DNA of 64,000 nt from Actinomycetes bacterium (GCA_965657825.1 CBFHQG010000003.1:910-64909), one strand, 5' to 3'; shown: positions 2,822 to 55,173, counted from the first letter of the stretch. Notes: generated from the sequence alone by a model not told the origin. Numbers and translations are program-made.

Positions 2822-3583
2822 TCAGGAGTTCTTAGCGAACACCAGGCTCAAGCCGCACAGGGTGAGGTCAGGATCGTGGTGGGTGATCGTCTCGGATTCC
2901 GCGATCACCACCGGTGCGAGTCCACCGGTGGCGACGACAGCGGTGACCTCCCCGAGTTCGGCGGTGATCTTGCGCACGAGCCCATCGACCTGGCCGGCGA
3001 ACCCGTACACCGCACCGGCCTGCAGCGCCTCGACGGTGTTCTTGCCGATCACCGAACGGGGCCGGACGAGTTCGACCTTGCGAAGCTGTGCGGCCCGGGT
3101 CGCGAGCGCCTCGATGGAGATCTCGATACCGGGTGCTAGCGCACCACCGAGGAACTCCCCCTTCGCGCTCACCACATCGAGATTCGTCGAGGTGCCGAAA
3201 TCGACCACGATGCACGGACCGCCGTATCGGTGGTGGGCGGCGATCGTATTGACGATGCGGTCGGCTCCTACCTCCTTGGGATTGTCGGTCAGCACCGGAA
3301 CCCCGGTCTTGGTACCCGGCTCGACGATGACCGTCGGTGTATCGGAGTAGTAGGTGTCCAGCATGGTGCGCATCTCATGGAGCACCGCGGGCACCGTCGA
3401 ACACAGGGCGATGCCGGTGACCGCTGGTGAATCGGCGAGGAGACCGCGCAGCGTCAGTGCCATCTCATCCGCGGTCGCGCGGGTGTCGGTCTTGATCCGC
3501 CACGAGTGGGTGAGTTCGTCATCGGAGTTGTACAGGCCGAGAACCGTGTTGGTGTTGCCGACATCGATGGCGAGCAGGCTCAT
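2822..3583 (-). CDS. coaX: type III pantothenate kinase
   Basis: 253 aa. Starts MSLLAIDVGNTNTVLG (ASKHA phosphate-1 motif) and carries DFGTSTN. ATGA overlap with the upstream nadC-domain stop. Confidence 0.9.
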   Translation of the reverse strand: MSLLAIDVGNTNTVLGLYNSDDELTHSWRIKTDTRATADEMALTLRGLLADSPAVTGIALCSTVPAVLHEMRTMLDTYYSDTPTVIVEPGTKTGVPVLTDNPKEVGADRIVNTIAAHHRYGGPCIVVDFGTSTNLDVVSAKGEFLGGALAPGIEISIEALATRAAQLRKVELVRPRSVIGKNTVEALQAGAVYGFAGQVDGLVRKITAELGEVTAVVATGGLAPVVIAESETITHHDPDLTLCGLSLVFAKNS

Positions 3584-4485
3584 GGCAGTTCCTCCAGATC
3601 AGCACCGATATCGAGCACGGGCGCCGAATGAGTCAGGGCACCCACGGCAAGGTAGTCCACCCCGGTCTCCGCGACCACGGCGGCTGACTCCAGCGTCAAA
3701 CCCCCGGAGGCCTCCAATCGTGCTCGCCCCGCGGTGATCGTGACTGCTTCACGCATCTGCTCGGGGGTGAAGTTGTCCAACAGCACGAGATCGGCACCGG
3801 CGTCGAGCACCTCGGCGAGTTGATCGAGGGAGTCGACCTCGACCTCGATATCGATGCCGGGGAAGGCTTCGCGCACCGCGGCGAAGGCAGGCGCCACCCC
3901 ACCGGCTGCGACGACGTGGTTGTCCTTCACCAAGGCGGCATCCGACAGGGACATGCGATGGTTCATCCCGCCACCGCAGCGCACCGCGTACTTCTCCAGT
4001 GCTCGCAGGCCGGGGGTGGTCTTGCGGGTGTCGCGGATTCGCGCTGATGTGCCGTCTACGGCCACCACCCATCGATGGGTCAGGGTGGCGATGCCCGATA
4101 GATGGCAGAGCAGGTTCAGCGCGGTGCGTTCGGCCAGCAGCAGATCGCGTGTGGGGCCGGTGATCTGGAGCAGTGCGTCACCCGGCATCACCACATCCCC
4201 GTCGTTCATGGCCAGGTCGATCTCGACGCGGCCCTTTGCTGCTTCGGCGAACACCAGACCGGCCACCGGGATGCCCGCGGCAACTCCGCCGGCCCGGGCC
4301 ACGAGGTGCATTCGGGAGCGCTGTCTGCGCGGCACGGTGGCCTCGCTGGTCACGTCGACACCACCGGCCAGATCCTCGGCGAGGGCATCGCGCACGAGTT
4401 CGCGCACCGCATCGGGATCGACTCCCGCCTCGCGCAGCAGGCCCTCGATTCGTGCCTGGTCGGCGCCCTGGCGCTCCGGCTCCAT
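3580..4485 (-). other. nadC: NadC (quinolinate phosphoribosyltransferase) domain, or a possible internal in-frame start
   Basis: The ATG at 4485 begins MEPERQ...ALAEDLAGGVDVTSEA...LLAERTALNLLCHLSGIAT...KDNH...LLDNF, a typical NadC motif order. It is in frame with nadB and no stop separates them. Confidence 0.75.
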
Positions 4486-6105
4486 GGCGGTCACCGTCTC
4501 ACGCCGTGTGCTCACCTGTCCGTGAGGGGTGACTCGACTCACCAGGCGCATCCGCCACCTGATGTCATCCCGCTCGGGGAAGTCCTCGCGCCAGTGCGAG
4601 CCCCGGGTTTCCTGCCGCGCGTGGGCATGGGCCACGAGCAGTCGTGCGACCTCGACGAGATTGGTGGTCTCCCAGTCCTCCGTACAGGGTCGACCGCCAT
4701 CTGCACGCGCGATCGCCGAGAGGCTCTCGGAGGCGCGAGTGAGGGACTCTGCGTTACGCAGGACACCAGCGTCGACACTCATCACCTGCTGTACCTCGTG
4801 GCGGCGCGAATGCGGCACGAGGGAGACGACCTGCGTATCGGGCACGACGGGTCGAGCTTCGCGACGCTCGGCGGCCAGTACGGCACCGATGCGGGTGGCG
4901 AACACCAGGCCCTCGAGAAGGGAGTTGGAGGCCAGCCGGTTCGCACCGTGCACACCGGTGCACGCGACCTCGCCGCAGGCGTAGAGGCCGGGGATACCGG
5001 TCCGGCCCTCGCGATCGGTGCGCACCCCCCCGGACACATAGTGCGAGGCTGGGGAGACCGGGATCATCTCGGTCACCGGGTCGACATCGTGCTCGAGGCA
5101 GGAGGCGTAGATTGTCGGGAATCGCTCACGCCACTTGCGCTCACCGAAGGAGCGAGCATCCAGCCAGACATGCGGTTGGCCTGTCGCGAGCATCCGGCGC
5201 ATGATCGCGCGCGACACGACATCGCGTGGAGCCAGATCGGCGAGCGGGTGCTCACCGATCATGAAGTGTCCACCTTCGGCATCGCGCAGGATCGCCCCCT
5301 CGCCGCGCACAGCCTCACTGATCAACGGCTGCTGGCCCAGCGCCGTCGGGCCCAGCCACAGCACCGTGGGATGGAACTGCACGAACTCCACATCGGCGAT
5401 CTCCGCCCCCGCTCGGATCGCCATCGCCAGACCATCACCCGTCGCTACCGATGGATTCGTGGTCTGCGAGTACACCTGCCCGAAGCCACCGGTCGCCAGC
5501 ACGATCATCGGTGCGAGTGCCGCTCCGACCCCATCTCGCTGGCCCTGGCCCATGACATGCAAGGTGACGCCCTGCACTCCACCATCGGAATCCCGCAGCA
5601 GATCCAACGCGAGAGCGCCCTCGATCAACTCGATGCCCGGATCAGCGAGGATGGCCGCGACCAGCGCACGACTGATCTCCGCACCCGTCGCGTCTCCGCC
5701 AGCATGGGTGATGCGATCCCGCAAATGGCCACCCTCGCGGGTCAGCTTCAATTCCCCCGCATCATCGACGTCGAAGTGCGCGCCGAGGTCGATCAGGTGT
5801 CGGACAGCCGCTGGTCCCTCCGTGACAAGCGCCCGCACCGCGTCCACATCGCACAGGCCTGCACCGGCGACGAGGGTGTCGTGCAGATGCTCCTCCGGGG
5901 TGTCATCGTCGGCGAGTGCTGCAGCGATACCACCCTGCGCCCATCGCGTCGATCCTTCATCGACCCGGCCTTTCGTCACGATGAGCACGCGCAGCCCCGC
6001 ACGCCTCGCGTCGAGGGCCGCTGTCAGCCCGGCTATCCCCGAGCCGATCACGATGACGTCCGCACTGACCTCCCAGGTGGGGTCAGCGGCCTGGAGCCTG
6101 CTCAC
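3580..6105 (-). CDS. nadB: L-aspartate oxidase fused in frame to nicotinate-nucleotide (quinolinate) pyrophosphorylase (841 aa)
   Basis: The GTG at 6105 overlaps the panC stop (GTGA). The N-terminal ~540 aa carry the FAD motif VIVIGSGIAGL and NadB/succinate-dehydrogenase-like blocks (HPTV, RGEGA, LASNSLLEG). The reading frame runs without a stop into a 301-aa NadC-like part. The first 114 codons of the longest ORF (6106-6447) are rejected because they overlap panC. Confidence 0.8.
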   Translation of the reverse strand: MSRLQAADPTWEVSADVIVIGSGIAGLTAALDARRAGLRVLIVTKGRVDEGSTRWAQGGIAAALADDDTPEEHLHDTLVAGAGLCDVDAVRALVTEGPAAVRHLIDLGAHFDVDDAGELKLTREGGHLRDRITHAGGDATGAEISRALVAAILADPGIELIEGALALDLLRDSDGGVQGVTLHVMGQGQRDGVGAALAPMIVLATGGFGQVYSQTTNPSVATGDGLAMAIRAGAEIADVEFVQFHPTVLWLGPTALGQQPLISEAVRGEGAILRDAEGGHFMIGEHPLADLAPRDVVSRAIMRRMLATGQPHVWLDARSFGERKWRERFPTIYASCLEHDVDPVTEMIPVSPASHYVSGGVRTDREGRTGIPGLYACGEVACTGVHGANRLASNSLLEGLVFATRIGAVLAAERREARPVVPDTQVVSLVPHSRRHEVQQVMSVDAGVLRNAESLTRASESLSAIARADGGRPCTEDWETTNLVEVARLLVAHAHARQETRGSHWREDFPERDDIRWRMRLVSRVTPHGQVSTRRETVTAMEPERQGADQARIEGLLREAGVDPDAVRELVRDALAEDLAGGVDVTSEATVPRRQRSRMHLVARAGGVAAGIPVAGLVFAEAAKGRVEIDLAMNDGDVVMPGDALLQITGPTRDLLLAERTALNLLCHLSGIATLTHRWVVAVDGTSARIRDTRKTTPGLRALEKYAVRCGGGMNHRMSLSDAALVKDNHVVAAGGVAPAFAAVREAFPGIDIEVEVDSLDQLAEVLDAGADLVLLDNFTPEQMREAVTITAGRARLEASGGLTLESAAVVAETGVDYLAVGALTHSAPVLDIGADLEELP

Positions 6106-7915: not shown

Positions 7916-8974
7916 TCATCGATCGAGGTGGCAGACATCGGTGTCGTCCTCCTCCGAAAACTCGACCGTGAGCCAATACACGCCACTCGAGCGGTTGAGG
8001 ATGCGTGCGCGCTGGGTGTGTCGCTGTAATTGCTCGGCGTACCGTCGGGGATCGGTTTCGGCGAGTGCAGGCTCAGGGATCGACATCTCCGGCAGGAGTT
8101 CGTCGAGCCACTCGGACTGGCTGCGCACACATCCGGCAGGCTGAGTGGCCGCGGCACACGCATCCAACGCCACGTGCGCGGTGATATTCATCGAACCGTC
8201 GGGGATGGGCCAGTGCGTTGCACCATTCGAGTATCCGGTGATGCTGCCAGCGTCATAGCGTCCCGACTCACGTTCGGTGCGCAGGTGCGCGTAGTCGATC
8301 GCCAGCGCAGCACCGGACCGGATCGCGGCGCAGACCGCACGCCATGCTGCATCTCGATGCAGGCCTACCTCGGCGCGGTCACGCACCGGACCCCACCAGC
8401 GGTCCAACCATCTCCCCGCATCCGTGTCCGAGCCCACCGGATCACCCAGGGTCTCCAGCCCGGTGCGTGGGTCCACGAGGATCTCGCGCACCACATCCTG
8501 CTGATCTCGTGCGACGACATCGATGGGGAGGTCGTCGAGCCATTCGTGCGCGAGCACGACCCCGGTGACACCGTCAGGCCAGGTCGAACTCAAGGCCTTT
8601 GGTGCCTCACCGGTGATCCAGGAGATCTCGTCGGGCAATCCGGCCGGTCGCTCCCGCACGTCGACCCCGGTGAGTCGATAGTCGTGTCCATTCAGGAGTT
8701 GATGCAGCGACAGGAGTAGTTCCCCTGATCCTGCGCCGATGTCGACCACGTCGACGATCCGATCCTCCGTCCACCGCTCGGCGATGCGCCGGATCCATCT
8801 GGCGAGAGCCTCGGCAAGCAGACCGGTCTGCGCCTCGGTCGCAAAGTGCTGATGCGGCCTCTCTCGGAGGTAGAACCCCTGGGGACCCAGATTCGCGTCA
8901 TTCCAGGCTCGCGACCAGGTCGGAAGTCCAAGGGGGTGGTGCGGTGGGGATTGCCGTGCCCTGATGTCGGTCAT
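7916..8974 (-). CDS. SAM-dependent methyltransferase, MidA/NDUFAF7 (DUF185) family
   Basis: 352 aa from the ATG at 8974 (ATGA overlap with the ydbT-like stop). Motifs in order: GFY...F.T, VVDIGAGSGELL, AHEWLDDLPIDVV, AIDYAH, GSITGY...NITAHVALDA. Confidence 0.75.
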   Translation of the reverse strand: MTDIRARQSPPHHPLGLPTWSRAWNDANLGPQGFYLRERPHQHFATEAQTGLLAEALARWIRRIAERWTEDRIVDVVDIGAGSGELLLSLHQLLNGHDYRLTGVDVRERPAGLPDEISWITGEAPKALSSTWPDGVTGVVLAHEWLDDLPIDVVARDQQDVVREILVDPRTGLETLGDPVGSDTDAGRWLDRWWGPVRDRAEVGLHRDAAWRAVCAAIRSGAALAIDYAHLRTERESGRYDAGSITGYSNGATHWPIPDGSMNITAHVALDACAAATQPAGCVRSQSEWLDELLPEMSIPEPALAETDPRRYAEQLQRHTQRARILNRSSGVYWLTVEFSEEDDTDVCHLDR

Positions 8975-10461
8975 GGTCGATGCAGGCGTGCCAGGCGGGC
9001 CCGATCGGCCTGGGCATCGGCGAGTCCGCGCGCAGTGGGCAGATCGACCTGCAACGCCGACAGGCTCACCGGGCCGGGCGCGACGTCGAAGGCGACGGTC
9101 GCGAGACGCAGGGCACGTTGCCACGGACCCTGCATGACACGCACCGATTGATTGCGCGCATGGGGGGCGAGACTGATCCGGCGGGTGATGCGGCCAGTAC
9201 GCGTGGCAATGACCTGTTCGGTGGCGGCCCACGCCAGAAACGCCCACTGGAACGGCTCGCGCCAGCGGGCGCGACGTGGTGCGCTCACCCACGGCAGGTC
9301 ATCGACGGTGACCCCGGGAAGCACCTGTTCGATGATCGCGAGAGCTTCATCGCGCGGGGCGACGGGAAGCAGCACAGCCCGGCCGGTCTCCTGACCTTCA
9401 CCGCCGACCCCGGCCACGGTGAGTTGGACCCGCACCCAGTGAAAGCGCCGCCACAGCAGGGGCGCCACGATCTCCACCGCCTGGATGCGCCCCACCGGCA
9501 CTGTGCGGGTCTGGGTCTGTAGCAGCCCATTCCGCAGACGCAGCCCATCTCGCGTGCGCGAGAGCTGGAAGTTCGAATAGGTGAAGAACTCGCTGATAAT
9601 CGCGAACAGCGGCACACCACCGGTGATGAGCGCGACGGCAAGCGACGCGACACCCTGGGTCCGGATGGTGAACAGGATGAACAGCACCGTCAGGATGAAC
9701 AGGGTCACCGTGGTCGTGCGCAGCAGCAGCGAACCGAACAGCCGCCCGGTTGGCACACTGGCCAACAGTTCGCCATCCATCTGGTTCGCCAGGTTGGGTA
9801 GTGCGGCCTGGTCGTGTTCGCCGTCGTCGACACCTGCTATCGCAGCACCCTCAGGGTTCGTGCGCAGTGCCGCTTTCGCCAGAATCGTCACGCGCAGATC
9901 CTCCGCCTGACTCTTCGTCAGATAGCGCAGCACGGCACGCGAATCACCGGCACCAGCCACCTCGATGCGCACTTCGACGAACCCGAGCAGGCGCGCGATC
10001 AGTGGCGAAACAGCATCGACGCTCTGCAGACGGGACAGTTGCAGCCGCCGAGCCTGGCGCTGGAAGATTCCTGAATCGACATGCAGGTCGCCGTCGGCGT
10101 CGAGGTAATACGTCAGCTTCTGCCACGACCACCAGCCGAATCCTGCTGCGACCGCCGCGATGACGATGGTCGCGATCGCGGCACCGATCGCCGCGGGCAA
10201 CCCGATGTCCTCCCAGAGCCCACCGAGTGGGAGCAGCATGCCGATATAGACCGCGGGCACGATGCGCGCGGCGAGCACGATCGGGGATGCCGGGTGCGTG
10301 CGCCGCGGGATCGACAGGTCCATCAGCGCAGCCGGTGCGTACGCGGTCCGTGGATCAGGGGGCGGCGCATCGCCGGGCGGCGGGACATGCTCGAGCAGTG
10401 GGTGCGTTTCGTCCTGCTCAGACTGACCCGGTTGCGAATGCTCGGGGAACTGCCCGGTCAC
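8971..10461 (-). CDS. YdbT-like membrane protein with repeated bacterial PH (bPH_2) domains
   Basis: 496 aa from the GTG at 10461 (GTGA overlap with the ydbS-like stop). Hydrophobic hairpins alternate with repeated soluble modules (three repeats of the pattern ...VPVGRIQAVE...). The upstream part of the 593-aa ORF is rejected. Confidence 0.7.
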   Translation of the reverse strand: MTGQFPEHSQPGQSEQDETHPLLEHVPPPGDAPPPDPRTAYAPAALMDLSIPRRTHPASPIVLAARIVPAVYIGMLLPLGGLWEDIGLPAAIGAAIATIVIAAVAAGFGWWSWQKLTYYLDADGDLHVDSGIFQRQARRLQLSRLQSVDAVSPLIARLLGFVEVRIEVAGAGDSRAVLRYLTKSQAEDLRVTILAKAALRTNPEGAAIAGVDDGEHDQAALPNLANQMDGELLASVPTGRLFGSLLLRTTTVTLFILTVLFILFTIRTQGVASLAVALITGGVPLFAIISEFFTYSNFQLSRTRDGLRLRNGLLQTQTRTVPVGRIQAVEIVAPLLWRRFHWVRVQLTVAGVGGEGQETGRAVLLPVAPRDEALAIIEQVLPGVTVDDLPWVSAPRRARWREPFQWAFLAWAATEQVIATRTGRITRRISLAPHARNQSVRVMQGPWQRALRLATVAFDVAPGPVSLSALQVDLPTARGLADAQADRARLARLHRP

Positions 10462-10970
10462 ATGCCTGCCGATCGCTCCTCGCCGCGTGCGGCGAGCCGA
10501 TCCCGCAGAGCCGCCGCCTCGTCGGGAGGCAGGCCGGGGATCGCGGCGTCGGTGGTGGCTGCCGCGGTGTGCAACTGAACGGTCGCGATACCCAGCCAAC
10601 GATCGATCGGCCCCGCGGTGAGGTCGACCATCTGCATGCGGCCATAGGGCACGATGACCAACCGGCGGATGAGGATGCCGCTGACCACCAGCAGATCCGT
10701 CTCGCGTTCGGCATAGCCATAGGACCGCACCCGCCGGCCGATCAACCACCACGCCCAGATGAATCCGACGACGACGACGGCCGTCGCGATCGCGGCCACC
10801 CAGGTGGGGATCGGTGGGATCAGCCAGAGAGCGATCAGCAACGCGACCTCGAACAGGGTGCCGAAGACAAGCGTGATGCGTCGGGCGGTGATGAGCTTGG
10901 GCGACACCCGCACCCAGTTCTCCTGCGGTGGGGCGAAGGCCTCATCAACCTCGTGCACGTGGGAACTCAC
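10458..10970 (-). CDS. YdbS-like PH-domain membrane protein
   Basis: 170 aa with two TM helices followed by a bPH_2-like module (VPYGRMQMVDLTAGPIDRWLGIATVQLHTA). GTG start. Confidence 0.75.
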   Translation of the reverse strand: MSSHVHEVDEAFAPPQENWVRVSPKLITARRITLVFGTLFEVALLIALWLIPPIPTWVAAIATAVVVVGFIWAWWLIGRRVRSYGYAERETDLLVVSGILIRRLVIVPYGRMQMVDLTAGPIDRWLGIATVQLHTAAATTDAAIPGLPPDEAAALRDRLAARGEERSAGM

Positions 10971-10975
10971 CTTCT

Positions 10976-11003
10976 TACTCTGTCATGCCTACTCTGTCGT
11001 GCC
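10976..11003. repeat. 14-bp tandem repeat in the ydbS / nuoD-like divergent region
   Basis: TACTCTGTCATGCC followed by TACTCTGTCGTGCC (1 mismatch), beginning 6 nt upstream of the ydbS-like GTG. A second tandem repeat, TCAGGAC x2, lies at 11082-11095. Confidence 0.8.
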
Positions 11004-11114
11004 TGCCTCGCACATCCACCGTGCCTTCATGGCAGGGTGGGCCCGTGTCCGCTGCACCTCCCTCCGATGGCCCCCGAGGCCTCAGGACTCAGGACTGACG
11101 AGGTGACGACCGAG

Positions 11115-12248
11115 ATGCAGGTCATCGGCATCGGTGCCGCCCCCGCCGACATCACCCTCGACCTCGGCGAACTGCACCCCAGCGCCCATGGCGGGATGCG
11201 TGTCCGCTGCTCTTTCACTGATGTTTCTCAGACCGGATCGGTCCGAGTCGCGACGGCTGAACCGTTACCCGGCCTGCTGCACCGCGGGGCCGAGAAACTG
11301 CTCGAGGTGCGCGACTACCGAGCCGGTCTCATGCTCGCCAACCGTCACGACTGGCTGTCTGCGGTGACCAGCGAGGTGACGATGGCCCTCGCCGTCGAAG
11401 AGTTGCTGGGGTTGACTCCCCCGCCGCGGGCGACATGGTTGCGCACCGCGCTGTGCGAGATGAACCGCGTGATGGCCGGGCTGTTGCATCTGATCGGTGC
11501 CGCCACGCTGCCAGGGCGCGGGGTGAGCGCCGCGGAGGTTCCTGGTTTGGCTGCCCGCGAGGCGTGGCAGCACGCACTGGATCGCATCAGCGGGGGCCGG
11601 ATCCACGCGATGGTCACCCGCATCGGCGGGCTGGCCAATGACGCGCCGGATGGTTGGGTCGACGACGTGCGCGCTGCGGTCGCGGCGACGCGGCAGCAAC
11701 TACCGGAGTTGGCTGAATTAGCGGTCGCGGCAGTATCCGGCGACAGCGTCGCGGTGCTGTCCCATGAGGATGCGGTGGCGTACTCGGTGAGCGGTCCGGT
11801 GGCACGCGCGAGTGGTTTCGACCTCGACCTGCGCCGTGACTCCCCGTCCCTTGCCTATGCCGACCTCGCCGATGTGCTGCGGGTCGCGGTCGGCACCGCG
11901 GGTGATGCTGCGGCGAGGTACGCGGTGCTCGCCGAACAGATCGGCTACGACCTCGACCTGATCGAGGCGTGCCTGGAGCGGCTACCCGACGGTGAGGTGA
12001 ACGTGCAATTGCCCAAGGTCGTGCGCGCCCCGGTGGGCACCGCGTACGCCTGGCTGGAGGCGGCCACGGGGATCAACGGGGTGCTCGTGGTGAGCACCGG
12101 GGAGACGACACCGTGGCGCGTACGGCTACGCACCGCGTCGTATGCGAATGTGCAGGCGATGAGTGCTGCGCTCCCGGGCACCGCGCTCGGCGACCTGCCG
12201 GGCGCGATCGGGTCGTTCTTGTTCATCGTCGGCGACCTCGACCACTAA
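11115..12248 (+). CDS. orphan NADH-quinone oxidoreductase subunit D (NuoD/NDUFS2)-like protein
   Basis: 377 aa. GAGG lies 11 nt upstream of the ATG at 11115. Blocks colinear with NuoD: HPSAHGGMR, GLLHRGAEKLLE, ALAVEELLGLTPPPRATWLR, DRISGGRIHA, and C-terminal IVGDLDH. No other nuo genes are in the window. Confidence 0.8.
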   Translation: MQVIGIGAAPADITLDLGELHPSAHGGMRVRCSFTDVSQTGSVRVATAEPLPGLLHRGAEKLLEVRDYRAGLMLANRHDWLSAVTSEVTMALAVEELLGLTPPPRATWLRTALCEMNRVMAGLLHLIGAATLPGRGVSAAEVPGLAAREAWQHALDRISGGRIHAMVTRIGGLANDAPDGWVDDVRAAVAATRQQLPELAELAVAAVSGDSVAVLSHEDAVAYSVSGPVARASGFDLDLRRDSPSLAYADLADVLRVAVGTAGDAAARYAVLAEQIGYDLDLIEACLERLPDGEVNVQLPKVVRAPVGTAYAWLEAATGINGVLVVSTGETTPWRVRLRTASYANVQAMSAALPGTALGDLPGAIGSFLFIVGDLDH

Positions 12249-12266
12249 CGAAGGCTGGTCGTCACA

Positions 12267-12325
12267 GAGAACGACGCCTAACCGGACTAACTCACCGCCC
12301 TTAATCCGGTTTACCGTCGTTCTCG
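12267..12325 (+). repeat. copy A of a repeated ~60-nt intergenic hairpin element
   Basis: A perfect 10-bp outer stem (GAGAACGACG / CGTCGTTCTC) plus an inner stem (TAACCGGA / TCCGGTTTA). It shares the cores AACCGGACTAAC and CGTCGTTCTCG with copy B at an identical 35-nt offset. Confidence 0.75.
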
Positions 12326-12338
12326 CAGGCCTCACCGC

Positions 12339-15110
12339 TCAACGGGGGCGGATGATCACCCGGTTGGACTTCACGTCACTGTCGATGCCCCGGAAATACA
12401 CGTACACCTTCTTGCCCGTGCGCCGCTCCCAGGTGAAATCACCCTCAGCATTGACCGTCACGCGAGATACACCCTCCGTGTACGACGTCTGCCCGGGGAA
12501 CTTCACCCACGGCGCCACCTGCTCCCCCGCCATGCCCGTCGTCTCACCGGACACGATCACCCCGGGACGACCCCGCACCTCTCCTCGAGTGCCGGTGATG
12601 AGGATCGACTTCTCCACCGGCGGCGCTTCCGGGGTGAACGGTGCACTCGGTGCCGAGAAGGCACCCCAGCCCGCACCACTCAACGCCCGCACCGCCACCG
12701 TGTACTCGGTGCCATTGGTCAACCCAGTGATCACACACGGAGAAGAAGCACTCAGACACGTTTGCCCACCAGGAGACACCACCGCCTGGAACGTCGAAAC
12801 CGGGAACGACCCACTCGACGCCGACGGCGACCAGGTGATCGTCGCCTCACCATCACGCGCCGTGCCAGAAACACTCAACGGAGCCGACGGCGGAATCACC
12901 GGAGCCGGCGGTGAAGGCTTCGCCGAGTTCAACACCGCACCCAATACCGCAGGAGACCCACGCGTCGCCCCCAACTGATCCACGTCATACGGCACAGGAA
13001 GTCGCGTCGTCAGGAAGTTCTCGACGATCACCGGGGAATTCCATGCGGGACGTGCTGTGGGCAGGAAGTAGGCCCCATCAGCCCCAATGCGGGGCCCCCC
13101 GTTGTCACCAAGGGCACCCAGCAGCGGATTCCCGAAGATTGGGGAGTAGCTGTCATCCTTTACCTTGATAGCCGCAAAAGATGTCACCGATGACGTCACC
13201 AAGGTGACACTGTCGTCACTGGTGGGGCCCCCAAGGTCACTAGCCGTATCGTCGTCCACCGTGTTGTTCCAGAGCACTGAGTTCACCACATATGCCAGAT
13301 TCACGCTTTCAGAGAAGAAGATGCCAGCCCCATCATCGACTCCCCGCGAAGTATCCAGCAGGGAATTATCCGTCACCGTCACATACGACAACTGAAATAC
13401 AAAGGGTTCGGGATACGTGCCTGTGGGCGGATGCAGCTCCATCCCCCAGTAGGCGCCAGCTCCGTGCTGGGTTGCCCTATTCCCGGAAATCGTCGAGTTG
13501 TAAAGGAACGCCTCGTATGACGGAGTGATTCCGACTCCACCGACCGCCTGGATTCCTCCCCCCGTGTAGGGAGCGGTGTCGTCACCGTTTGCGATGAACG
13601 AGGAGTTGTTAATTTTCATGTCGTCTGGATAGGGAATCTGCGCGTATAGACCAGCCCCCTTGATCTTCGCATCATTCCCCACGAAAGCAGTTCCGCTGAC
13701 ATTCAGGGAACGGGGTGTAGATGTGTCATCTCTGGCGAAGGCGATCCCACCCCCCTTGACCGCGTAGTTATTCGCAAAGTAGGACTCTTCGATTTCAAGG
13801 TCCCCGTTTATTGCGGATATCGCGCCGCCCACGGCTGTGTCGTCTCCTGACGTCACCCGATTGCCTACGAATGTCGAGCCATGTATGCGGTTGCCTTGGG
13901 AGCTGAAGACAGCTAGGGCTCCGCCACTTTGTCCTGCGGTGTTGTTAAGGAAGGTCGCACCCGTCTGGGCATACCCCACCGCGATGTCGATGTCCGAACC
14001 CGGGAACAAAAAGATCGCGCCCCCGACATAATCGGCGTGGTTTGCTTCAAAAACGGTTTCGTTTCCTTGATACCCGTATATGTTCACCTCTGCATCGCTC
14101 GCTGAGATCGCACCACCCGAACTAAAACTGGGTGAAGCACCATTACTGGCAACGTTCGCGGTGAATGCAGAGTTGAAGATTAATAGGTCTCGATCCGTCA
14201 CGTTGACAGCGCCGCCGGTGGAAGAAGCCCGATTCGAGGAGAATTCCGAAAACGCGAGGATCACGTCGTGATCAGCCGATATCGCTCCACCGTAAACAGC
14301 ACTGTTAGCGGTGAACTCCGTATTGTAGATGTCCAACGTGTCACCCTCGCTGTACACGGCACCGCCCTTATCTGACGCCGTGTTCTGCGAAAAGCTCGAA
14401 TATTCGATCTCCAATTCCTCAACGGTGTATACCGCACCGCCCTTTACGGCACGATTCCCCATGAAGCGAGAGTTATAGATGAACGTATCAACGCCTGTGT
14501 AGGCAGCACCGCCCCTACCATCAGCAATGTTTCCAGAGAAAACAGCATCGTAAATGCGGACTTGATCAAGAATATTCGCCCCCTTGGCTCTAAGTGCGGC
14601 GCCGTCACCCGCCACCGTGTCATCTCCGGCGAAGGTCAGCGAGCGGATAATCACACTGTCATCACCAGGGTCCGAGAAGTCGACATCCAGGTGTCGCAGG
14701 GACGTGTCGTCACCGTCCTGGGCGGGCAGCAGGGTGATCGAACTGTCATCACCCATCAGTGTGATGCTGGTGTCGTCGAGAAAGAGTGTCTGCGACAACC
14801 GGAACCCCGATGTCCCGGTGATGCAGATGATGTCGCCATCCACGCTCGAGGTGATCGCCGCCTGCAACGTCGTATCGTCATCGACATAGGTCTTCACACC
14901 GGGCACATCTTCACAGCCAGACAGCGTCACCGGCGGCGCCAGACCGTTGCGCGTCCCCACCTGACCGCCACCGGGGGCGGCATACGTGGGCTGCGGCCGC
15001 AGAGCGCCCAGATACGTGCCCAGCAAACTCGCGGTAGCCACCAGCGACACCGCCGCCATCCGCTGACCACGGCGACGTCGAACCTGGCGGGGGGAACCAG
15101 GACTACTCAC
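12339..15110 (-). CDS. secreted parallel beta-helix protein with Pmp-type repeats, a choice-of-anchor-Q-like segment, an FN3 domain and an unknown C-terminal domain
   Basis: 923 aa. The GTG at 15110 is preceded by GAGGAG. Signal-peptide-like N-terminus (RRRRGQRMAAVSLVATASLLG...TYAAP). About 14 GGA[IVL] motifs alternate with F..N motifs. Also carries GNPLLGALGDNGGP and the FN3 signature TNGTEYTVAV. I saw no LPXTG motif. Confidence 0.8.
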   Translation of the reverse strand: MSSPGSPRQVRRRRGQRMAAVSLVATASLLGTYLGALRPQPTYAAPGGGQVGTRNGLAPPVTLSGCEDVPGVKTYVDDDTTLQAAITSSVDGDIICITGTSGFRLSQTLFLDDTSITLMGDDSSITLLPAQDGDDTSLRHLDVDFSDPGDDSVIIRSLTFAGDDTVAGDGAALRAKGANILDQVRIYDAVFSGNIADGRGGAAYTGVDTFIYNSRFMGNRAVKGGAVYTVEELEIEYSSFSQNTASDKGGAVYSEGDTLDIYNTEFTANSAVYGGAISADHDVILAFSEFSSNRASSTGGAVNVTDRDLLIFNSAFTANVASNGASPSFSSGGAISASDAEVNIYGYQGNETVFEANHADYVGGAIFLFPGSDIDIAVGYAQTGATFLNNTAGQSGGALAVFSSQGNRIHGSTFVGNRVTSGDDTAVGGAISAINGDLEIEESYFANNYAVKGGGIAFARDDTSTPRSLNVSGTAFVGNDAKIKGAGLYAQIPYPDDMKINNSSFIANGDDTAPYTGGGIQAVGGVGITPSYEAFLYNSTISGNRATQHGAGAYWGMELHPPTGTYPEPFVFQLSYVTVTDNSLLDTSRGVDDGAGIFFSESVNLAYVVNSVLWNNTVDDDTASDLGGPTSDDSVTLVTSSVTSFAAIKVKDDSYSPIFGNPLLGALGDNGGPRIGADGAYFLPTARPAWNSPVIVENFLTTRLPVPYDVDQLGATRGSPAVLGAVLNSAKPSPPAPVIPPSAPLSVSGTARDGEATITWSPSASSGSFPVSTFQAVVSPGGQTCLSASSPCVITGLTNGTEYTVAVRALSGAGWGAFSAPSAPFTPEAPPVEKSILITGTRGEVRGRPGVIVSGETTGMAGEQVAPWVKFPGQTSYTEGVSRVTVNAEGDFTWERRTGKKVYVYFRGIDSDVKSNRVIIRPR

Positions 15111-15215
15111 GAGAACTCCTCACAGCGTTGCGCGCAGACTTCAACGTCTGACGATCGCCTTCAACATAGGTGCCACTCCCACGAAACACCTAGGAAGAAT
15201 CGACGGAGGACTCTA

Positions 15216-15238
15216 AATGTGAGGACATCCTCCACATT
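15216..15238. promoter_or_regulatory. imperfect palindrome in the divergent promoter region between the beta-helix protein gene and the response regulator gene
   Basis: AATGTGAGGA-CA-TCCTCCACATT. The outer 6 bp are perfect and the inner 4 bp pair after a 1-nt bulge. It is a candidate LuxR-type operator. Confidence 0.4.
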
Positions 15239-15308
15239 CCGACCAGACACCGGGCTTGTCACCCCGCATCAGCCACAGCGCACTACCGTGGAAGCGGAGG
15301 TGAGGAAC

Positions 15309-15944
15309 ATGCGCGTGATGATCGTCGACGACGACGGCTTCACCCGCATGCTGCTCGGATCAACCGTCCGAGAACTCGGCCACGATGTCGTCGCCGAAGA
15401 AGCCGACGTCACCGCCGGCATGGACGCACTACGCATGACCAAGCCCGAAGCGGCGATCGTCGACCTCGACTTCGGCCATGGACCCTCGGGTATCGACCTG
15501 GCCCACGGACTCCGCCATCTCAGCCCACACATTGGCATTGTGATCCTCACCGGCTATGCCGATCCGCGGCTGCTCGGCCACACTGGGGACATGCCAGCAG
15601 GATCGGTGTACCTGGTGAAGCGTTCCGTTCAGGATCCTCATGTTCTCGAGGCCGCACTTCACATCAGCATCGACCCGAAGTCCGCCACGTATCTCGAGAC
15701 ACTCCCCACAAGGGAATCCATCGGCAGGAACCGTCGGATCTCCGACAAGCAGGTCGAGGTCATGCGGTTGGTCGCTGACGGCTACACCAATACTGAGATC
15801 GCCAAACGCCAGCACATCACCGTGTCCACGGTCGAGAAGGCGATTGCGAGGCTCGCCGATCAGCTCGGTCTCGATACTTCGTCAGAGATGAACCACCGGG
15901 TACTCATCACCCAGGCCTACTTCCGATTCACCGGTGCGAGGTGA
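15309..15944 (+). CDS. response regulator, NarL/LuxR family
   Basis: 211 aa. GGAGGTGAGG lies upstream of the ATG. Receiver residues DDD, IVDLD, ILTGY and LVKRS are present. C-terminal LuxR HTH (VEVMRLVADGYTNTEIAKRQHITVSTVEKAI). Confidence 0.9.
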   Translation: MRVMIVDDDGFTRMLLGSTVRELGHDVVAEEADVTAGMDALRMTKPEAAIVDLDFGHGPSGIDLAHGLRHLSPHIGIVILTGYADPRLLGHTGDMPAGSVYLVKRSVQDPHVLEAALHISIDPKSATYLETLPTRESIGRNRRISDKQVEVMRLVADGYTNTEIAKRQHITVSTVEKAIARLADQLGLDTSSEMNHRVLITQAYFRFTGAR

Positions 15945-15951
15945 GGCGCCC

Positions 15952-17700
15952 ATGACTTTAGAACTGGACCGCCCCACCATCCACGCCGAAGCAGAGACCA
16001 CACTCAGCGACCGCATCCCCATCGAGGGTCGCCCCACCTGGCTCGGCTTCGCGATCAACTGCCTCGTGGCCACTTTCAGCATGACCGGGGAGTTCCTCAC
16101 CGGGGGGATGGGGACGTCATTCCCTCGTGCTCTGCTCTTCCTCGCCGGAATCCTCGCCGGGGCAGCGGTCTGCCTCGTGCTACTCCGTGCGATCCTCGCC
16201 CGGACACGACGTCTGACGGCAATCGGCCTCATCGCCCTGCTCATCGTGAGTGCACTTGTATTGACCATCGCGTTGAACTCTGATGCTTATCGACATGCCG
16301 TCGGAATTCCCTCGTCGAGCTGGTCGCTGTGGGTGAGCCTGCTGGTGTACTGCGTGACCCTGCCGTGGTGGGTCATCTCACTTGAATTACTGCTCTCGAC
16401 CTGGCGTCGCATTCGCCGCGACCGGCAGCAACTCCTGCGCGAGGCGCAGGCTCGCAGCACTATCAGCGCCGAGCAGGCCCAGCTGATCGACGAGGTCCGC
16501 TCCCAGGTTAGGAGCGAAGTCCACGCTTTGCTCTCGCCCGCCGCACGTCACCTCGACGATCAACTCAGGCGAGAACATGATCTATCGCTGAGCTCAGCAC
16601 GGGAGAGCATCGCGACCGTCTTGCACGACACAGCCAGGGAGCAGGTGCGATCGCTCAGCCACGACCTGCATCATCTCGCTCACCAATCAGCCGCCACCGT
16701 CAAGTCTCGGCACCTCATCTCGACCATCGTCCACACAGCGCGCTTCTATCCGCTCCCCGTCACCATGCTGTTTCTCCTTATCGAAACCGAGGTGTACTTC
16801 ACCACCTACACACCCCTGATGGCGTCGCTGCTGCTCCTTATCGGAGTGGCCTACATCGTCACTGTCATGCCGTGGGCAAATTCGCTCATGCGCAAACACT
16901 CCCAACATCACATGGGCATCTACCTCAGCACTCTCGTCGTGATGCAACTTCCTCTGGTACTTCGACCCCTTGCTGACCCAGACTGGACAAACAACCCGCT
17001 GGCGTTCGGAACTCTCATCCTCGATGCAGCCTTCGGGACCCTTTTCATTCTCGTCCTCTCCGGACTCGGCTCCTGGCGTGGCAACGCTCTTGCCCGCCTT
17101 GAGGGCGAGCAGCGCAGGCTGGAGCGCGAGAGGCAGGAGCAGATCCATCGACGCCGCGTCACAGCGGATGTCGTCACAGAAGCATCCCGTGCGCTGCACG
17201 GTTCTGTGCAGACGAAGTTGACCGCTGCGGCCCTGGCGCTCACCCTCGGAGGTGATCACGCCGATGATGCAACGATCCTCCGATCGCTGGAACAGGCGCG
17301 ACAGGCACTGCTCGACCCCCTGCCATCCGACGCCGCATCACTGCATAGTGGGCGCACGATGCGCCAGGGTCTCCATGACGTCACCCGACCCTGGGTGGGA
17401 CTGTGCGACATCGACATCGACACCACCGGCTGCCCAGATCACCATCTGGCTGCGCATTCCTGCACGCTCATCGTCGAAGAGGCCGTCACCAACGCCGTGC
17501 GTCACGGCAAAGCTCGCCACATCAGCATTCAGGTAGCCACCTCGGACGAGGGCCTGTTGATCACGGTGACCGATGACGGTCATGTGACCGCATCAACCTC
17601 ACCTGGCCTCGGCTCGCAGATCATCGACCAGTTAGCCACTACATGGACCCGCGAAGGTCACGGCGAGCAAGGCACGACCCTGCGCGCCGTCATCGTCTGA
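15952..17700 (+). CDS. polytopic sensor histidine kinase, HisKA_3/NarX-like
   Basis: 582 aa from the ATG at 15952 (GAGGTGAGG upstream; an alternative GTG at 15934 overlaps the regulator gene). H-box-like ALHGSVQTKL, N-box EEAVTNAVRHGKA and G-box DDGHV...GLGSQI. Two separate clusters of TM helices. Confidence 0.8.
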   Translation: MTLELDRPTIHAEAETTLSDRIPIEGRPTWLGFAINCLVATFSMTGEFLTGGMGTSFPRALLFLAGILAGAAVCLVLLRAILARTRRLTAIGLIALLIVSALVLTIALNSDAYRHAVGIPSSSWSLWVSLLVYCVTLPWWVISLELLLSTWRRIRRDRQQLLREAQARSTISAEQAQLIDEVRSQVRSEVHALLSPAARHLDDQLRREHDLSLSSARESIATVLHDTAREQVRSLSHDLHHLAHQSAATVKSRHLISTIVHTARFYPLPVTMLFLLIETEVYFTTYTPLMASLLLLIGVAYIVTVMPWANSLMRKHSQHHMGIYLSTLVVMQLPLVLRPLADPDWTNNPLAFGTLILDAAFGTLFILVLSGLGSWRGNALARLEGEQRRLERERQEQIHRRRVTADVVTEASRALHGSVQTKLTAAALALTLGGDHADDATILRSLEQARQALLDPLPSDAASLHSGRTMRQGLHDVTRPWVGLCDIDIDTTGCPDHHLAAHSCTLIVEEAVTNAVRHGKARHISIQVATSDEGLLITVTDDGHVTASTSPGLGSQIIDQLATTWTREGHGEQGTTLRAVIV

Positions 17701-17787: not shown

Positions 17788-18078
17788 TCAGGCCTCGCCG
17801 CGGTCGCGGAGGTAGGTCGCGAACTTCGCCCGCAGCAGCGCCTCGGTGTCAGGATCCAGCTGCGGGTTCTTGGCGAACATCTCGCGCGCGGCCTTCACCG
17901 TCTCGATGATCGTCCCGCCGGTCGACCCGAGATCGCCACCCTCCCCCTCGATGGCATGCATGCCCGGCATATGCGAGAACACGCTGGAGAAGAACGCGAT
18001 ATCCAGATGCCTCTCGGCGGTGTGGAACGCGCGGTGGCGCAGTTCGTCGAAGGGCAGATCCTCGAGTGCCTCACTCAT
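17788..18078 (-). CDS. hypothetical small acidic protein
   Basis: 96 aa from the ATG at 18078 (MSEALEDLPFDELRHRAFH...). I recognise no domain. Coding is supported only by ORF length and codon usage in context. Confidence 0.5.
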   Translation of the reverse strand: MSEALEDLPFDELRHRAFHTAERHLDIAFFSSVFSHMPGMHAIEGEGGDLGSTGGTIIETVKAAREMFAKNPQLDPDTEALLRAKFATYLRDRGEA

Positions 18079-18106
18079 GCACTGAACCCTAGCCTGCTCG
18101 GTTCGC

Positions 18107-18631
18107 CTAGTCTCCGCCGCGCAGGCGACACATCGATTCCAGCCAGATCGCCGAGCCGACCAACACAGCGCACGCACCCGCCGCAATGAGGCTCGCCGTC
18201 ACCGAATCCGATCCGCTCGGCGTCGAGATCACCCCGATCAGCGCGGCCATGATGCCCAGGTAGAACCCACCGATGAGCGCCCCGGTGCGCGATGCGGCCA
18301 TCGCCAACGCCGCTGTACGCGCCGCAAGAAGCGGGGGCATCCGGTCCGGATGAGCCCGGCGCACCGCCTGCGGGTCACCTGTCGGCACATGCACCGGTTC
18401 TGGGCCGCGCGACGAGTGCCCGCGGTCATCCGGATGGATCAGGCGCGGCCGGCTCACCACCGCCCACAGCAGCACCCCGATCGCCAGCGCCCACAGACCC
18501 AGACTGGCGATCAGCGGAACGCCCAGGATGCGCCCCGTTGTGGAATCCACGATCCGCACCAGCACCCAGCCGACCGCAATGCCGATCAACACGATCGCGA
18601 CCAGCCACGCGATGCTCGTGCGCTTGATCAT
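18107..18631 (-). CDS. DUF3180-like integral membrane protein
   Basis: 174 aa with 4 TM helices. It lies immediately downstream of folK with an ATGA-type overlap, matching the M. tuberculosis Rv3605c slot. Confidence 0.7.
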   Translation of the reverse strand: MIKRTSIAWLVAIVLIGIAVGWVLVRIVDSTTGRILGVPLIASLGLWALAIGVLLWAVVSRPRLIHPDDRGHSSRGPEPVHVPTGDPQAVRRAHPDRMPPLLAARTAALAMAASRTGALIGGFYLGIMAALIGVISTPSGSDSVTASLIAAGACAVLVGSAIWLESMCRLRGGD

Positions 18632-36734: not shown

Positions 36735-36750
36735 CCTGACGTGCGTCAGG
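36735..36750. promoter_or_regulatory. 7-bp inverted repeat just upstream of hutG
   Basis: CCTGACG-TG-CGTCAGG. Its right arm overlaps the weak AGGA ribosome-binding site 7 nt before the ATG at 36759. Confidence 0.35.
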
Positions 36751-36758
36751 ATGAGCGC

Positions 36759-37664
36759 ATGAGCGAGCACCGCACCACCGATGATCCGCGCTGGCCGCGG
36801 GCCGGTACCTGGTTGGCCGGTGGGACAGACACGGCACGGGTCGATCTCGCCGTGCTCGGGGTACCGACGCACCGCACCTCGCTGAGCCCCACCCGCGCTG
36901 ACACCACCCCGGCCGCTATTCGCGAGGCGCTCAATCGCTACTCGACGTATTCGTCGATCCACGATGTCGACATCGCGTCCTTGTCCTGCCGCGACCTCGG
37001 GGATATCGAGCAGCCCGATGGTCCCGAAGGCGAACTCCGTGTCAGTGATGCCGTCCGCGAGGCCCTGCGCTCAGCGGAACTTCTCCTCGCCCTCGGCGGC
37101 GACAACTCCCTGACCTATCCCGTCGCCATCGGAGCGTGCCCCGATCTGGAGACTTCCGGACTCATCACCGTCGACGCCCACCACGATCTGCGCGACGGCA
37201 TCAGCAATGGGTCACCCGTGCAGCGCCTGATCGATGCCGGTCTGCGCGGTGATCGCATCGTGCAGATCGGTATCGCGGATTTCGCCAACTCTGCCCACTA
37301 CGCCCAGCGTGCTCGAGACCACGGCATCACCGTCATCAATCGGGAGTCGCTACACGACAGTCGTATCGACGATGTCATGGCACAGGCGATGCGAATCGCA
37401 GGAGCCGGCGGCGGCCCGATCCACGTCGACCTCGACGTCGACGTCTGCGACCGGTCGGTGGCGCCCGGCTGTCCGGCATCAGCCCCGGGCGGGATCAGTG
37501 CCGCAGAACTGCGCCGCATCGCGTTCCTCGCTGGACGCTCCCCTCGCGTGCACTCGATCGATATCGCCGAGATCGATGCGGCGGCAGATGCACCCGATCA
37601 GCGCACCGTGCGCCTCGGCGCCCTACTCCTACTCGAAGCCGCCGCGGGATTCGCCTGCAGGTAG
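36759..37664 (+). CDS. hutG: formimidoylglutamase (arginase/ureohydrolase family)
   Basis: 301 aa from the ATG at 36759 (alternative GTG at 36741). Arginase motifs GGDNS, DAHHD and DLDVDVCD. It sits next to hutHIU. Confidence 0.8.
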   Translation: MSEHRTTDDPRWPRAGTWLAGGTDTARVDLAVLGVPTHRTSLSPTRADTTPAAIREALNRYSTYSSIHDVDIASLSCRDLGDIEQPDGPEGELRVSDAVREALRSAELLLALGGDNSLTYPVAIGACPDLETSGLITVDAHHDLRDGISNGSPVQRLIDAGLRGDRIVQIGIADFANSAHYAQRARDHGITVINRESLHDSRIDDVMAQAMRIAGAGGGPIHVDLDVDVCDRSVAPGCPASAPGGISAAELRRIAFLAGRSPRVHSIDIAEIDAAADAPDQRTVRLGALLLLEAAAGFACR

Positions 37665-37680
37665 GAGCTGATGCGCAACC

Positions 37681-39225
37681 TCAGCCTGCTCGACGCGTCA
37701 ACGATTCCATCTCACGCACGATCGATTCGGCTGCACTGAGTTCGGGTGCGAGGTAGCGATCCGGTCCGGGGCCTGGAACGCGCTCCCGCAGCCGCTGGAG
37801 CACCTCAGCACTCCCAGCTCCCGGCTGCAAGGGCGCGCGTAGTTCGATCGCACGCGCTGCTGTGAGGAGTTCGATCGCCAGAATGCGTCGTAGATTCGCC
37901 ACGATCAGTCGCAGCTTGCGCGCCGCGTGCCAACCCATCGACACGTGATCCTCCTGCATGGCGGAGCTGGGGATGGAATCGACACTGGCAGGCGCGGCCA
38001 GTCGCTTGCACTCACTGACCAGCGCTGCCTGCGTGTACTGCGCGATCATCAGCCCGGAGTCGACGCCCGGATCATCAGCGAGGAACGGGGGCAGTCCGTG
38101 ACTGCGGGCCTTGTCCAGCATCCGGTCGGTGCGTCGCTCGGCCATCGAACCGACATCGGTCGCCGGGATCGCCAGGAAATCCAGCGCGTACGCGACCGGG
38201 GCACCGTGGAAGTTGCCATTGCTCGACACCGTCCCGTCTTCGAGAACGACCGGGTTATCGATCGCGGCGGCGAGTTCACGCTCTGCGACACCGCGAGCGA
38301 AATCGATCGTGTCACGCAGACCACCGGTGACCTGGGGAGCACATCGCAGCGAGTAGGCATCCTGCACGCGAGTGTCGGCCTCCCTGTGCGAGGCGACGAT
38401 GGGTGAACCGTCGAGGTGGGCGTACATCCGCGCCGCACTGTGCGCCTGGCCGGGATGAGGTCGCAAAGGACGGTGGAGTTCGGGGCGGAACACCGAGTCG
38501 GTCCCCAGGAGTCCTTCGACGCTCATCGCAGCGGTGATGTCGGCGACGTCGGCTAAACCGTCCAAATCAGCGAGGGCCAGGATGAGCATGCCGAGCATGC
38601 CGTCGGTGCCGTTGATGAGAGCCAGTCCCTCCTTCTCCTGCAACTCCACCGGGGTGATGCCGGCGTCGTCGAGCAACTCGGGAACGGGTCGGGTGAACCC
38701 CTCGGCATCCTGCGCATCACCCTCTCCCATCAGCACCAGGGCGCAGTGGGCGAGCGGTGCGAGATCACCGCTGCACCCCAGTGAACCGAACTCGCCGACC
38801 ACCGGGGTGATACCCGCATTGAGCAGGTCGACCATGGTCTGGGCGATGACGGGACGCACGCCGGTGCGACCACTGCACAGTGTCTTCGCGCGCAGGAACA
38901 TCAACGCACGGACCACCTCGCGCTCGACGGGTTCGCCCATTCCCGCGGCATGCGAGCGCACGAGCGAGCGCTGCAGTTGCACGCGTTGCTCGACGGGGAT
39001 GTGCCGGTTGGCGAGTGCTCCGAATCCGGTGGAGATGCCGTATGTCGGCGTGGCCGATGCCGCGAGCGCTTCGACCTGTGCACGAGTGCGGGCCATGGCA
39101 GTGAGTGCCTCCTCGGCGATCACCACGCGCGCTCCCTCGCGGGCGACGGCGATGACGTCCTCGATCGTCACCCCCGTGGTTCCCACGGTCACGGTCGCAC
39201 CCACCTGATCGGACTCGCCCATCAC
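37681..39225 (-). CDS. hutH: histidine ammonia-lyase
   Basis: 514 aa with the MIO-forming [12 protein letters not shown] motif and the QEDHVSMG block. Confidence 0.95.
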
Positions 39226-50117: not shown

Positions 50118-50120
50118 GGC

Positions 50121-51017: not shown

Positions 51018-51057
51018 GAGTGATATATTACATAGCACTCCTCCGCTGTCAATAGCC

Positions 51058-51106: not shown

Positions 51107-51108
51107 CG

Positions 51109-55162: not shown

Positions 55163-55173
55163 ACCGCCTCAGG

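Follow-up and report, generated by a model that had tools for sequence, protein, structure and literature searches.

A MidA/NDUFAF7-family methyltransferase gene paired with a NuoD2-type paralog of complex I subunit D in actinobacteria

Introduction

What is the role of a homolog of complex I subunit D whose gene lies away from any nuo operon and in the company of a methyltransferase gene? The question is raised by a 64,000-nucleotide stretch of DNA from an Actinomycetes bacterium (GCA_965657825.1 CBFHQG010000003.1:910-64909), analyzed as one strand and called here the window, in which a gene for a MidA/NDUFAF7-family methyltransferase (7916-8974, minus strand) and a gene for a NuoD/NDUFS2-like protein (11115-12248, plus strand), here NuoD2, are separated by two genes for membrane proteins with pleckstrin homology (PH) domains. 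The region under study is of high GC content, about 0.66-0.68. A first interpretation, the sequence-only reading, had taken the two proteins for a methyltransferase and its substrate acting outside a canonical complex I operon and linked by the PH-domain proteins. The comparison of gene neighborhoods presented here supports the methyltransferase and NuoD2 as a functionally linked pair. With moderate confidence, we propose that the window carries an actinobacterial NuoD2 locus, in which the methyltransferase would mature NuoD2 and NuoD2 would join a complex-I-like enzyme encoded elsewhere. The methylation, its arginine site and the partner complex are what we infer by analogy.

Arg85 of NDUFS2 is situated 3.7 Å from cluster N2, within the HRGXE motif. 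This residue is symmetrically dimethylated by NDUFAF7 early in assembly, and a NuoD homolog is the sole experimentally known substrate of this methyltransferase family (PMC3829151). The equivalent arginine is dimethylated in the complex I of Paracoccus and not in that of E. coli, and in Thermus an arginine of the NuoB homolog fills the space of the missing NuoD arginine (PMC8042128). In Candidatus Actinomarina, a PF02636 gene comes after an 11-subunit nuo operon (bioRxiv 10.1101/2021.02.01.429150). In Streptomyces, a second set of genes (nuoA2, nuoB2 and nuoH2 to nuoN2) forms one operon from which C, E, F and G are missing, with nuoD2 located elsewhere; the methyltransferase, the arginine and the tryptophan described below are unmentioned in the two papers concerned (PMC3765725, PMC8388888).

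Results

The methyltransferase

The open reading frame (ORF) at 7916-8974 (minus strand, 352 aa) is a divergent but clear member of the MidA/NDUFAF7 methyltransferase family (PF02636, COG1565), as the sequence-only reading had proposed. It matched the PF02636 profile (Methyltransf_28) with E=1.1e-16 and 61.6 bits for a cut-off of 23.3, over profile positions 2-243 of 249. The translation carries the S-adenosylmethionine (SAM)-binding motif I, VVDIGAGSGELL (8714-8749, minus strand), together with AHEWLDDLP, AIDYAH and NITAHVALD, so that both the class I SAM motif and the family motifs, among them those quoted earlier, are present. Among 65 homologs, D78, G80, G82 and G84 of motif I are invariant or nearly so, and E144, D147, D227, Y228, T265, H267 and V268 are invariant. 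A search of the PDB with a profile of the homologs matched only the COG1565 protein 4f3n (1e-25), the DUF185 protein 1zkd (8e-21) and Dictyostelium MidA 5ztz (2e-11). The AlphaFold2 (AF2) model (predicted local distance difference test, pLDDT, of 92.7) was then compared with known structures by Foldseek, and the top six matches were 4g67, 4f3n, 5ztz, 5zu0 and two chains of 1zkd (E 3e-16 to 2e-12, template modelling (TM) score 0.63-0.69), the next one being six orders of magnitude worse (4e-6). The model displays the family fold, with both the Rossmann core and the additional domain. Identity to the solved family members is about 15-21%, and no hydrophobic or transmembrane segment was found in the protein.

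The NuoD2 protein

The ORF at 11115-12248 (plus strand, 377 aa) had been read as a homolog of complex I subunit D. Its match to PF00346 (E=6.3e-49, 166.9 bits, cut-off 24) and the presence of the quoted motifs bear this out, and its AF2 model (pLDDT 92.1) has the complete NDUFS2 fold, with a Foldseek TM of about 0.82 to NDUFS2/NuoD chains. When NuoD2 was aligned by phmmer to 5xtd_Q, the mature chain of human NDUFS2, His25 fell on His59 and Arg57 on Arg85 within GLLHRG(A/T)EKL, in agreement with the earlier proposal that the arginine of GLLHRGAEK is the equivalent of the residue methylated in mitochondria. The HRGAEK motif occupies 11280-11297 (plus strand), with the Arg57 codon at 11283-11285. 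The RHDW motif lies at 11343-11354 (plus strand) and its last residue, Trp80, stands in place of the quinone-ligand Tyr108, the context being NRHDW in NuoD2 versus DRLDY or TRMDY in canonical NuoD. The canonical set of quinone head-group ligands is consequently incomplete, the His59 equivalent being present as His25 and Tyr108 being replaced. No substitution of Arg57, Trp80, His25 or His164 occurs among 120 orthologs, 40 of which had been found via the methyltransferase or by exact look-up and had not been selected for RHDW.

NuoD2 also missed all the NCBIfam NuoD equivalog cut-offs (247.7 versus 360 for NF004739, 225.5 versus 522 for NF008974 and 219.4 versus 459 for TIGR01962). Compared with the NuoD of mitochondria, E. 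coli and mycobacteria, it lacks about 26 residues; it is colinear over its full length with both FpoD and NF008974, the 366-aa model of a short NuoD. Nor is it encoded in a nuo operon beside nuoB or nuoC, as a canonical NuoD would be. The one canonical actinobacterial NuoD compared, that of M. smegmatis (8e9g_D), reads GYLHTGIEK ... TRMDY, with a threonine for the arginine and the tyrosine kept; Thermus Nqo4 likewise has HTG without the arginine and keeps the tyrosine. In this comparison, the arginine targeted by NDUFAF7 in mitochondria is found in NuoD2 only and not in canonical NuoD. Both the tryptophan at the Tyr108 position and the loss of the arginine in the canonical actinobacterial protein had been overlooked by the sequence-only reading. 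Judged by its sequence, NuoD2 is a distinct short-form paralog which keeps the N2-facing residues (HRGxEK and the His190 equivalent). That it could be a recent duplicate of an operonic NuoD is ruled out by the HTG/MDY versus HRG/RHDW signatures, by the short-form architecture and by the size of the family, which comprises about 100 clusters at 50% identity.

Conservation of the gene pair

The methyltransferase gene was found within 7.3 kb of NuoD2 in 81 of 88 NuoD2-centred loci. Among the seven others, five end at a contig edge on the relevant side and two, both from Streptomyces (L071, L083), are truly without it. Among metagenome loci reached through the methyltransferase, NuoD2 was detected in 22 of the 25 that were informative: in all ten that extend for 5 kb or more in both directions, and in 12 of the 15 that do so in one direction. 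After clustering of the ORFs located within 8 kb in 85 loci, the methyltransferase was the commonest neighbor (77 loci), ahead of DUF2520 (57), panC (48), folP (46) and YdbS (28). The conservation that the sequence-only reading proposed to check for all four genes is thus observed for the methyltransferase and NuoD2.

In 45 of the NuoD2-centred loci the two genes are directly adjacent, in three layouts. Relative to NuoD2, the methyltransferase is upstream and co-directional in 26 cases, downstream and convergent in 17 (the Streptomyces layout) and upstream and divergent in 2. The methyltransferase stop codon overlaps the NuoD2 start, as ATGA or GTGA, in 15 of the 26 co-directional pairs and also in L171. 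Kitasatospora, Micromonospora and Frankiales possess a bare two-gene operon, and in L005 the methyltransferase is directly divergent from NuoD2. In most of the sampled Streptomyces loci, the methyltransferase adjoins NuoD2 and is about 6 kb from DUF2520/panC. The distance matrices of the two proteins were also compared over 74 loci and gave r=0.86, versus 0.61-0.78 for other pairs of neighbors; when panC and DUF2520 were controlled for, the partial r was 0.74, versus 0.22-0.48 for the other combinations. As the distances are non-independent and no significance test was applied, this correlation is taken as supportive only. Conservation, coupling and correlation support the first part of the earlier claim, a linked pair; its second part, an action outside complex I, is dealt with below. 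The Streptomyces layout, the overlaps and the correlation make it less likely that the methyltransferase is rather a partner of DUF2520/panC, an idea which two loci still allow (L007 and L109, see Discussion).

In at least 15 loci, belonging to several orders (L003:6783-7955 and L008:9598-10833 among them), a cytochrome P450 gene stands between the two genes of the pair. The P450-bearing loci of Streptosporangiaceae include L015, L027 and L029, and the P450 may be a lineage-specific third member of the neighborhood.

The NuoD2 family and the Streptomyces nuoD2

NuoD2 homologs are present in at least 595 species genomes. In Streptomycetales they were found in Streptomyces, Kitasatospora, Streptacidiphilus and Actinacidiphila, and outside this order in Streptosporangiales, Micromonosporales, Aeromicrobium, Frankiales, Acidothermaceae, Geodermatophilaceae, Angustibacter and metagenome-assembled genomes of Mycobacteriales and Nanopelagicales. 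The exhaustive protein search which yielded the 100 or so clusters recovered the HR[G/S]...RH[D/E]W type down to about 33% identity, with canonical RxDY proteins below that level, and the arginine is present in every full-length RH[D/E]W-type cluster representative.

The Streptomyces orthologs, 47-48% identical to the NuoD2 of the window, have HRG and LANRHDW in common with it and lie at the same fol-pan locus. They belong to clusters of 180-3,000 sequences named 'NADH-quinone oxidoreductase subunit D', and the NuoD label is found in thousands of genomes. The view that the NuoD-like protein is an unrecognised orphan has to be abandoned, since such orthologs are routinely annotated NuoD and a separate nuoD2 has been named (PMC3765725, PMC8388888). 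This family is equated here with the Streptomyces nuoD2 by elimination. Because the Streptomyces nuoD2 goes with the nuoA2-B2-H2..N2 operon (PMC3765725, PMC8388888), the claim that the pair acts outside complex I becomes less likely than a role of NuoD2 as subunit of an enzyme of complex-I type encoded at another place.

The 90%-identity cluster of P0443 associates a 361-aa NuoD2 representative with members of 286-288 aa that bear the name 'SAM-dependent MidA family methyltransferase'. In L176 the two genes are separate, 12 nt apart, and the cluster may be bridged by a protein that is fused or arises by read-through.

The PH-domain genes

Two genes with bPH_2 domains lie between the pair in the window: a YdbT-like gene (8971-10461, minus strand) coding for three such domains (Pfam 3.7e-37, 126.9 bits) and a YdbS-like gene (10458-10970, minus strand) coding for one (6.1e-16, 58.9 bits). 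The products have three and one hydrophobic segments, respectively, as expected of PF03703 membrane proteins. As described earlier, the genes are chained by overlaps, GTGA at 10458-10461 between the YdbS-like stop and the YdbT-like start and ATGA at 8971-8974 between the YdbT-like stop and the methyltransferase start, and a divergent spacer of 144 nt (10971-11114) separates the ydbS-like gene from NuoD2.

About one third of the loci have PH-domain genes, almost always immediately divergent from NuoD2, and about two thirds of those which keep the pair are without them. They are thus facultative, and a role as obligatory bridge is ruled out. In L170:6001-8352, the YdbT-like protein and the methyltransferase form a single 783-aa fusion; apart from this, the locus has the same layout as the window. 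Six contigs carry such a fusion, with five distinct sequences among them. This fusion makes membrane tethering of the methyltransferase plausible where PH-domain genes occur, not in general, and it is to this extent only that the PH-domain link of the sequence-only reading survives.

Layout of the window

The NuoD2 gene has an alternative in-frame ATG start at 11067, inside the 144-nt spacer. A consensus scan of 10900-12400, spacer included, revealed no sigma-70-like site or terminator. On one side, the four-gene region is flanked by lysS, an alpha/beta hydrolase gene, coaX, a fused nadB-nadC, panC and a gene for a DUF2520 Rossmann protein; on the other side, beyond a 5.5-kb insertion, come a small ORF, DUF3180, folK, folB, folP, folE, ftsH, tilS and dacB. 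The earlier statement that the 64 kb hold no other nuo gene was confirmed, none being found by Pfam analysis of more than 35 further ORFs or by tblastn with NuoB, NuoI and NuoH queries, of which the NuoB query had been validated against the PDB. A hidden local nuo operon is ruled out by this Pfam analysis together with the NuoB/NuoI/NuoH searches of all loci.

The insertion corresponds to a stretch of lower GC content (0.59-0.63) at 12339-17700, which looks inserted because it breaks the order NuoD2 / small ORF / DUF3180 / folK seen in L001, L009 and L170. It codes for a protein of 923 aa (12339-15110, minus strand) in which Chlamydia PMP repeats are combined with an fn3 domain, for a LuxR-type response regulator (about 15290-15944, plus strand) and for a histidine kinase (15934-17700, plus strand). 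The small ORF, of about 90-130 aa and without Pfam match, is found between NuoD2 and DUF3180/folK in many loci, for instance at 17788-18186 (minus strand) in the window, L001:9173-9466, L005:9116-9418 and L176:11064-11360; a tblastn search with the copy from L001 as query brought up relatives in about 15 further loci, and the copy of the window is assigned by position only. On the opposite flank, NadB (L-aspartate oxidase) and NadC (quinolinate phosphoribosyltransferase) are encoded by a single ORF without intervening stop (3580-6100, minus strand). The two genes are also fused in L007 and L009 and are separate in L001 and L005. Farther away, the intervals 36741-42103 and 47283-60803 contain a histidine-utilisation cluster (arginase-family enzyme, hutH, hutI, hutU) and two clusters in which genes of the proline-racemase family occur together with DAO-type oxidase and DHDPS-like genes, as is typical of the catabolism of hydroxyproline.

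Discussion

In the reading that we favor, the soluble methyltransferase would bind newly made NuoD2 in the cytoplasm and methylate Arg57 of GLLHRGAEK, as NDUFAF7 does for Arg85 of NDUFS2. Once modified, NuoD2 would dock, within a complex-I-like enzyme whose genes lie elsewhere, on a NuoB-type Fe-S subunit and on membrane subunits; this enzyme could be a nuo2 set devoid of the N-module, as in Streptomyces, or possibly the canonical Nuo complex. A partner of NuoB type is argued from the strict conservation of the residues facing cluster N2. Where present, the YdbS/YdbT-like proteins may hold the methyltransferase at the membrane, and the tryptophan in place of the catalytic tyrosine speaks for an acceptor chemistry differing from ordinary quinone reduction.

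Several observations, given in this paragraph and the following one, speak against this reading. The block ftsH-folEPBK-DUF3180 ... DUF2520-panC-nadBC-coaX-lysS is conserved phylum-wide, and part of the co-location is inherited since the locus sits in this ancient fol-pan synteny block. In L007 (Thermobispora bispora) and L109 (a related metagenome contig), the methyltransferase is beside DUF2520-panC with no NuoD2 in reach; conversely, L172, L174 and L175 carry a distant NuoD2 (35-40% identity) with the arginine in the same block and no methyltransferase in reach. These last three loci, together with L071 and L083, indicate that the methyltransferase is not obligatorily adjacent. Nearly all members of the clade with 45% or more identity to the NuoD2 of the window have it as a partner and its presence is patchy beyond, and it lies immediately upstream of NuoD2 in the distant marine lineage of L176/L177 (41% identity). 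Moreover, an arginine at this site does not by itself imply methylation, as the E. coli case illustrates, and the function of prokaryotic MidA has been deduced only in silico (PMC12455994). The conserved block and the loci with only one of the two genes would suit a simple inheritance of synteny without any enzyme-substrate relation, the target of the methyltransferase being then canonical NuoD, another protein or, as proposed for Wolbachia MidA, a nucleic acid; in this respect, Wolbachia MidA expressed in E. coli methylated DNA (PMC12455994). We regard this explanation as improbable, and as the least probable of the alternatives considered here. It has to account for the 4-nt stop-start overlaps, for an adjacency that survives three orientations, with most sampled Streptomyces methyltransferases by NuoD2 and away from DUF2520, and for a distance correlation which is the highest among the pairs of neighbors even when these are controlled for. 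In addition, the target arginine is missing in canonical mycobacterial NuoD, and the only substrate established by experiment for the family is a NuoD homolog (PMC3829151).

The second group of unfavorable observations concerns the complex that NuoD2 would join. Searches of about 130 loci revealed no NuoB, NuoH or NuoI gene at less than 10 kb from NuoD2. In distant RHDW members (P0441-P0443, P0451, P0454, P0456 and others), the His59 equivalent is changed to Q, A, T, M, P or S with the arginine and the tryptophan fixed, and this loss, added to the tryptophan at the Tyr108 position, speaks against ordinary quinone reduction. NuoD2 could accordingly belong to no complex-I-type enzyme and operate alone or with the PH-domain proteins, for example as a sensor, a chaperone or a small-molecule binder regulated by the methyltransferase. 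The missed equivalog cut-offs, the constant place of the gene in the company of fol, pan and nad cofactor genes, not of respiratory ones, and the existence of the YdbT::methyltransferase fusion are in keeping with such a self-contained module, which we hold to be unlikely, if less so than the other alternatives. The most conserved residues (HRGxEK and the His190 equivalent) are those which face the N2 cluster of NuoB in complex I and are hard to explain without a NuoB-type partner, the fold is the complete NDUFS2 fold, and the D-less nuo2 operon of Streptomyces needs a D subunit (PMC3765725, PMC8388888). A stricter version, less probable than the broad one, would make NuoD2 and the methyltransferase, with YdbS/YdbT where present, a self-standing arginine-methylation module which never joins complex I and in which the former quinone pocket has acquired a new role; NuoD2, then a hydrogenase/NuoD-fold protein, would have persisted among the genes of folate, pantothenate and NAD biosynthesis over an evolutionary span exceeding that of a phylum.

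The partner enzyme might also be the 14-subunit complex I itself, methylated NuoD2 replacing canonical NuoD under some conditions and altering the N2/quinone site. NuoD2 is known from freshwater lineages with small genomes, for which no second nuo set has been documented, it retains the fold and the N2-facing residues, and an exchange of subunit isoforms has been proposed for Streptomyces NuoL2/NuoM2 (PMC3765725). However, NuoD2 is a short form with about 26 residues fewer than the protein it would replace. In T. thermophilus, whose D subunit has a threonine like that of M. smegmatis, an arginine of the NuoB homolog fills the space (PMC8042128), and an HRG-type D subunit might therefore clash with a NuoB of this kind. 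We consider this isoform exchange doubtful, to the same degree as the strictly self-standing module.

The pairing is of interest in several respects. Translationally coupled, the pair spans Streptomyces, Micromonospora, relatives of Frankia, Streptosporangiales and freshwater actinobacteria, and provides an independent line of genomic evidence that the two stand as enzyme and substrate in bacteria other than proteobacteria. The modification would be tied to one paralog, the single canonical actinobacterial NuoD compared having a threonine, and these organisms offer genetically tractable, non-essential systems in which the role of a dimethyl-arginine near cluster N2 can be addressed. Attention is also drawn to the unstudied Nuo2/NuoD2 system, with its D subunit devoid of the catalytic tyrosine. 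Should NuoD2 instead turn out to work without a Nuo complex, the NuoD fold would have a function not seen before.

Comparison with known systems

The YdbS/YdbT-like proteins resemble known bPH_2 proteins by their one and three copies of PF03703, their hydrophobic segments and their overlapping two-gene arrangement; they differ by their position between the methyltransferase and NuoD2 and by the fusion of YdbT to the methyltransferase in one lineage. NuoD2 shares with canonical NuoD (8e9g_D, Nqo4, E. coli NuoCD) the fold (TM 0.8), the His59 equivalent and the order of motifs, whereas canonical actinobacterial and Thermus NuoD have HTG and (R/T)MDY where NuoD2, encoded outside a nuo operon, has HRG and RHDW. 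With the Streptomyces nuoD2/nuo2 system there is agreement in that the orthologs are found in the same fol-pan locus, outside a nuo operon, and are annotated NuoD. No description of the methyltransferase-NuoD2 gene pair was found in the searched literature, in which the preprint on Ca. Actinomarina comes nearest. In that organism too, an actinobacterial MidA-family gene is positionally linked to an N-module-less complex I with NuoD; compared by description, its methyltransferase follows a full nuoA-N-type operon, whereas only the D paralog accompanies it here.

The enzyme-substrate type is already known from NDUFAF7 and NDUFS2, as is nuoD2 as a named gene. With the mitochondrial system, the present one has in common the methyltransferase family, the fold of the substrate and HRGxEK, with an arginine aligned to human Arg85 (PMC3829151). 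Unlike in that system, the genes are here neighbors, often in one overlapping operon, NuoD2 lies outside any nuo operon with a tryptophan for the quinone tyrosine and about 26 residues fewer, and the methylation is a predicted one. What is new is the dedicated and often translationally coupled pairing, its restriction to the arginine-bearing, tyrosine-less paralog and its breadth in a Gram-positive phylum. By analogy, this pairing suggests a bacterial counterpart of the arginine-methylation step of complex I assembly in mitochondria.

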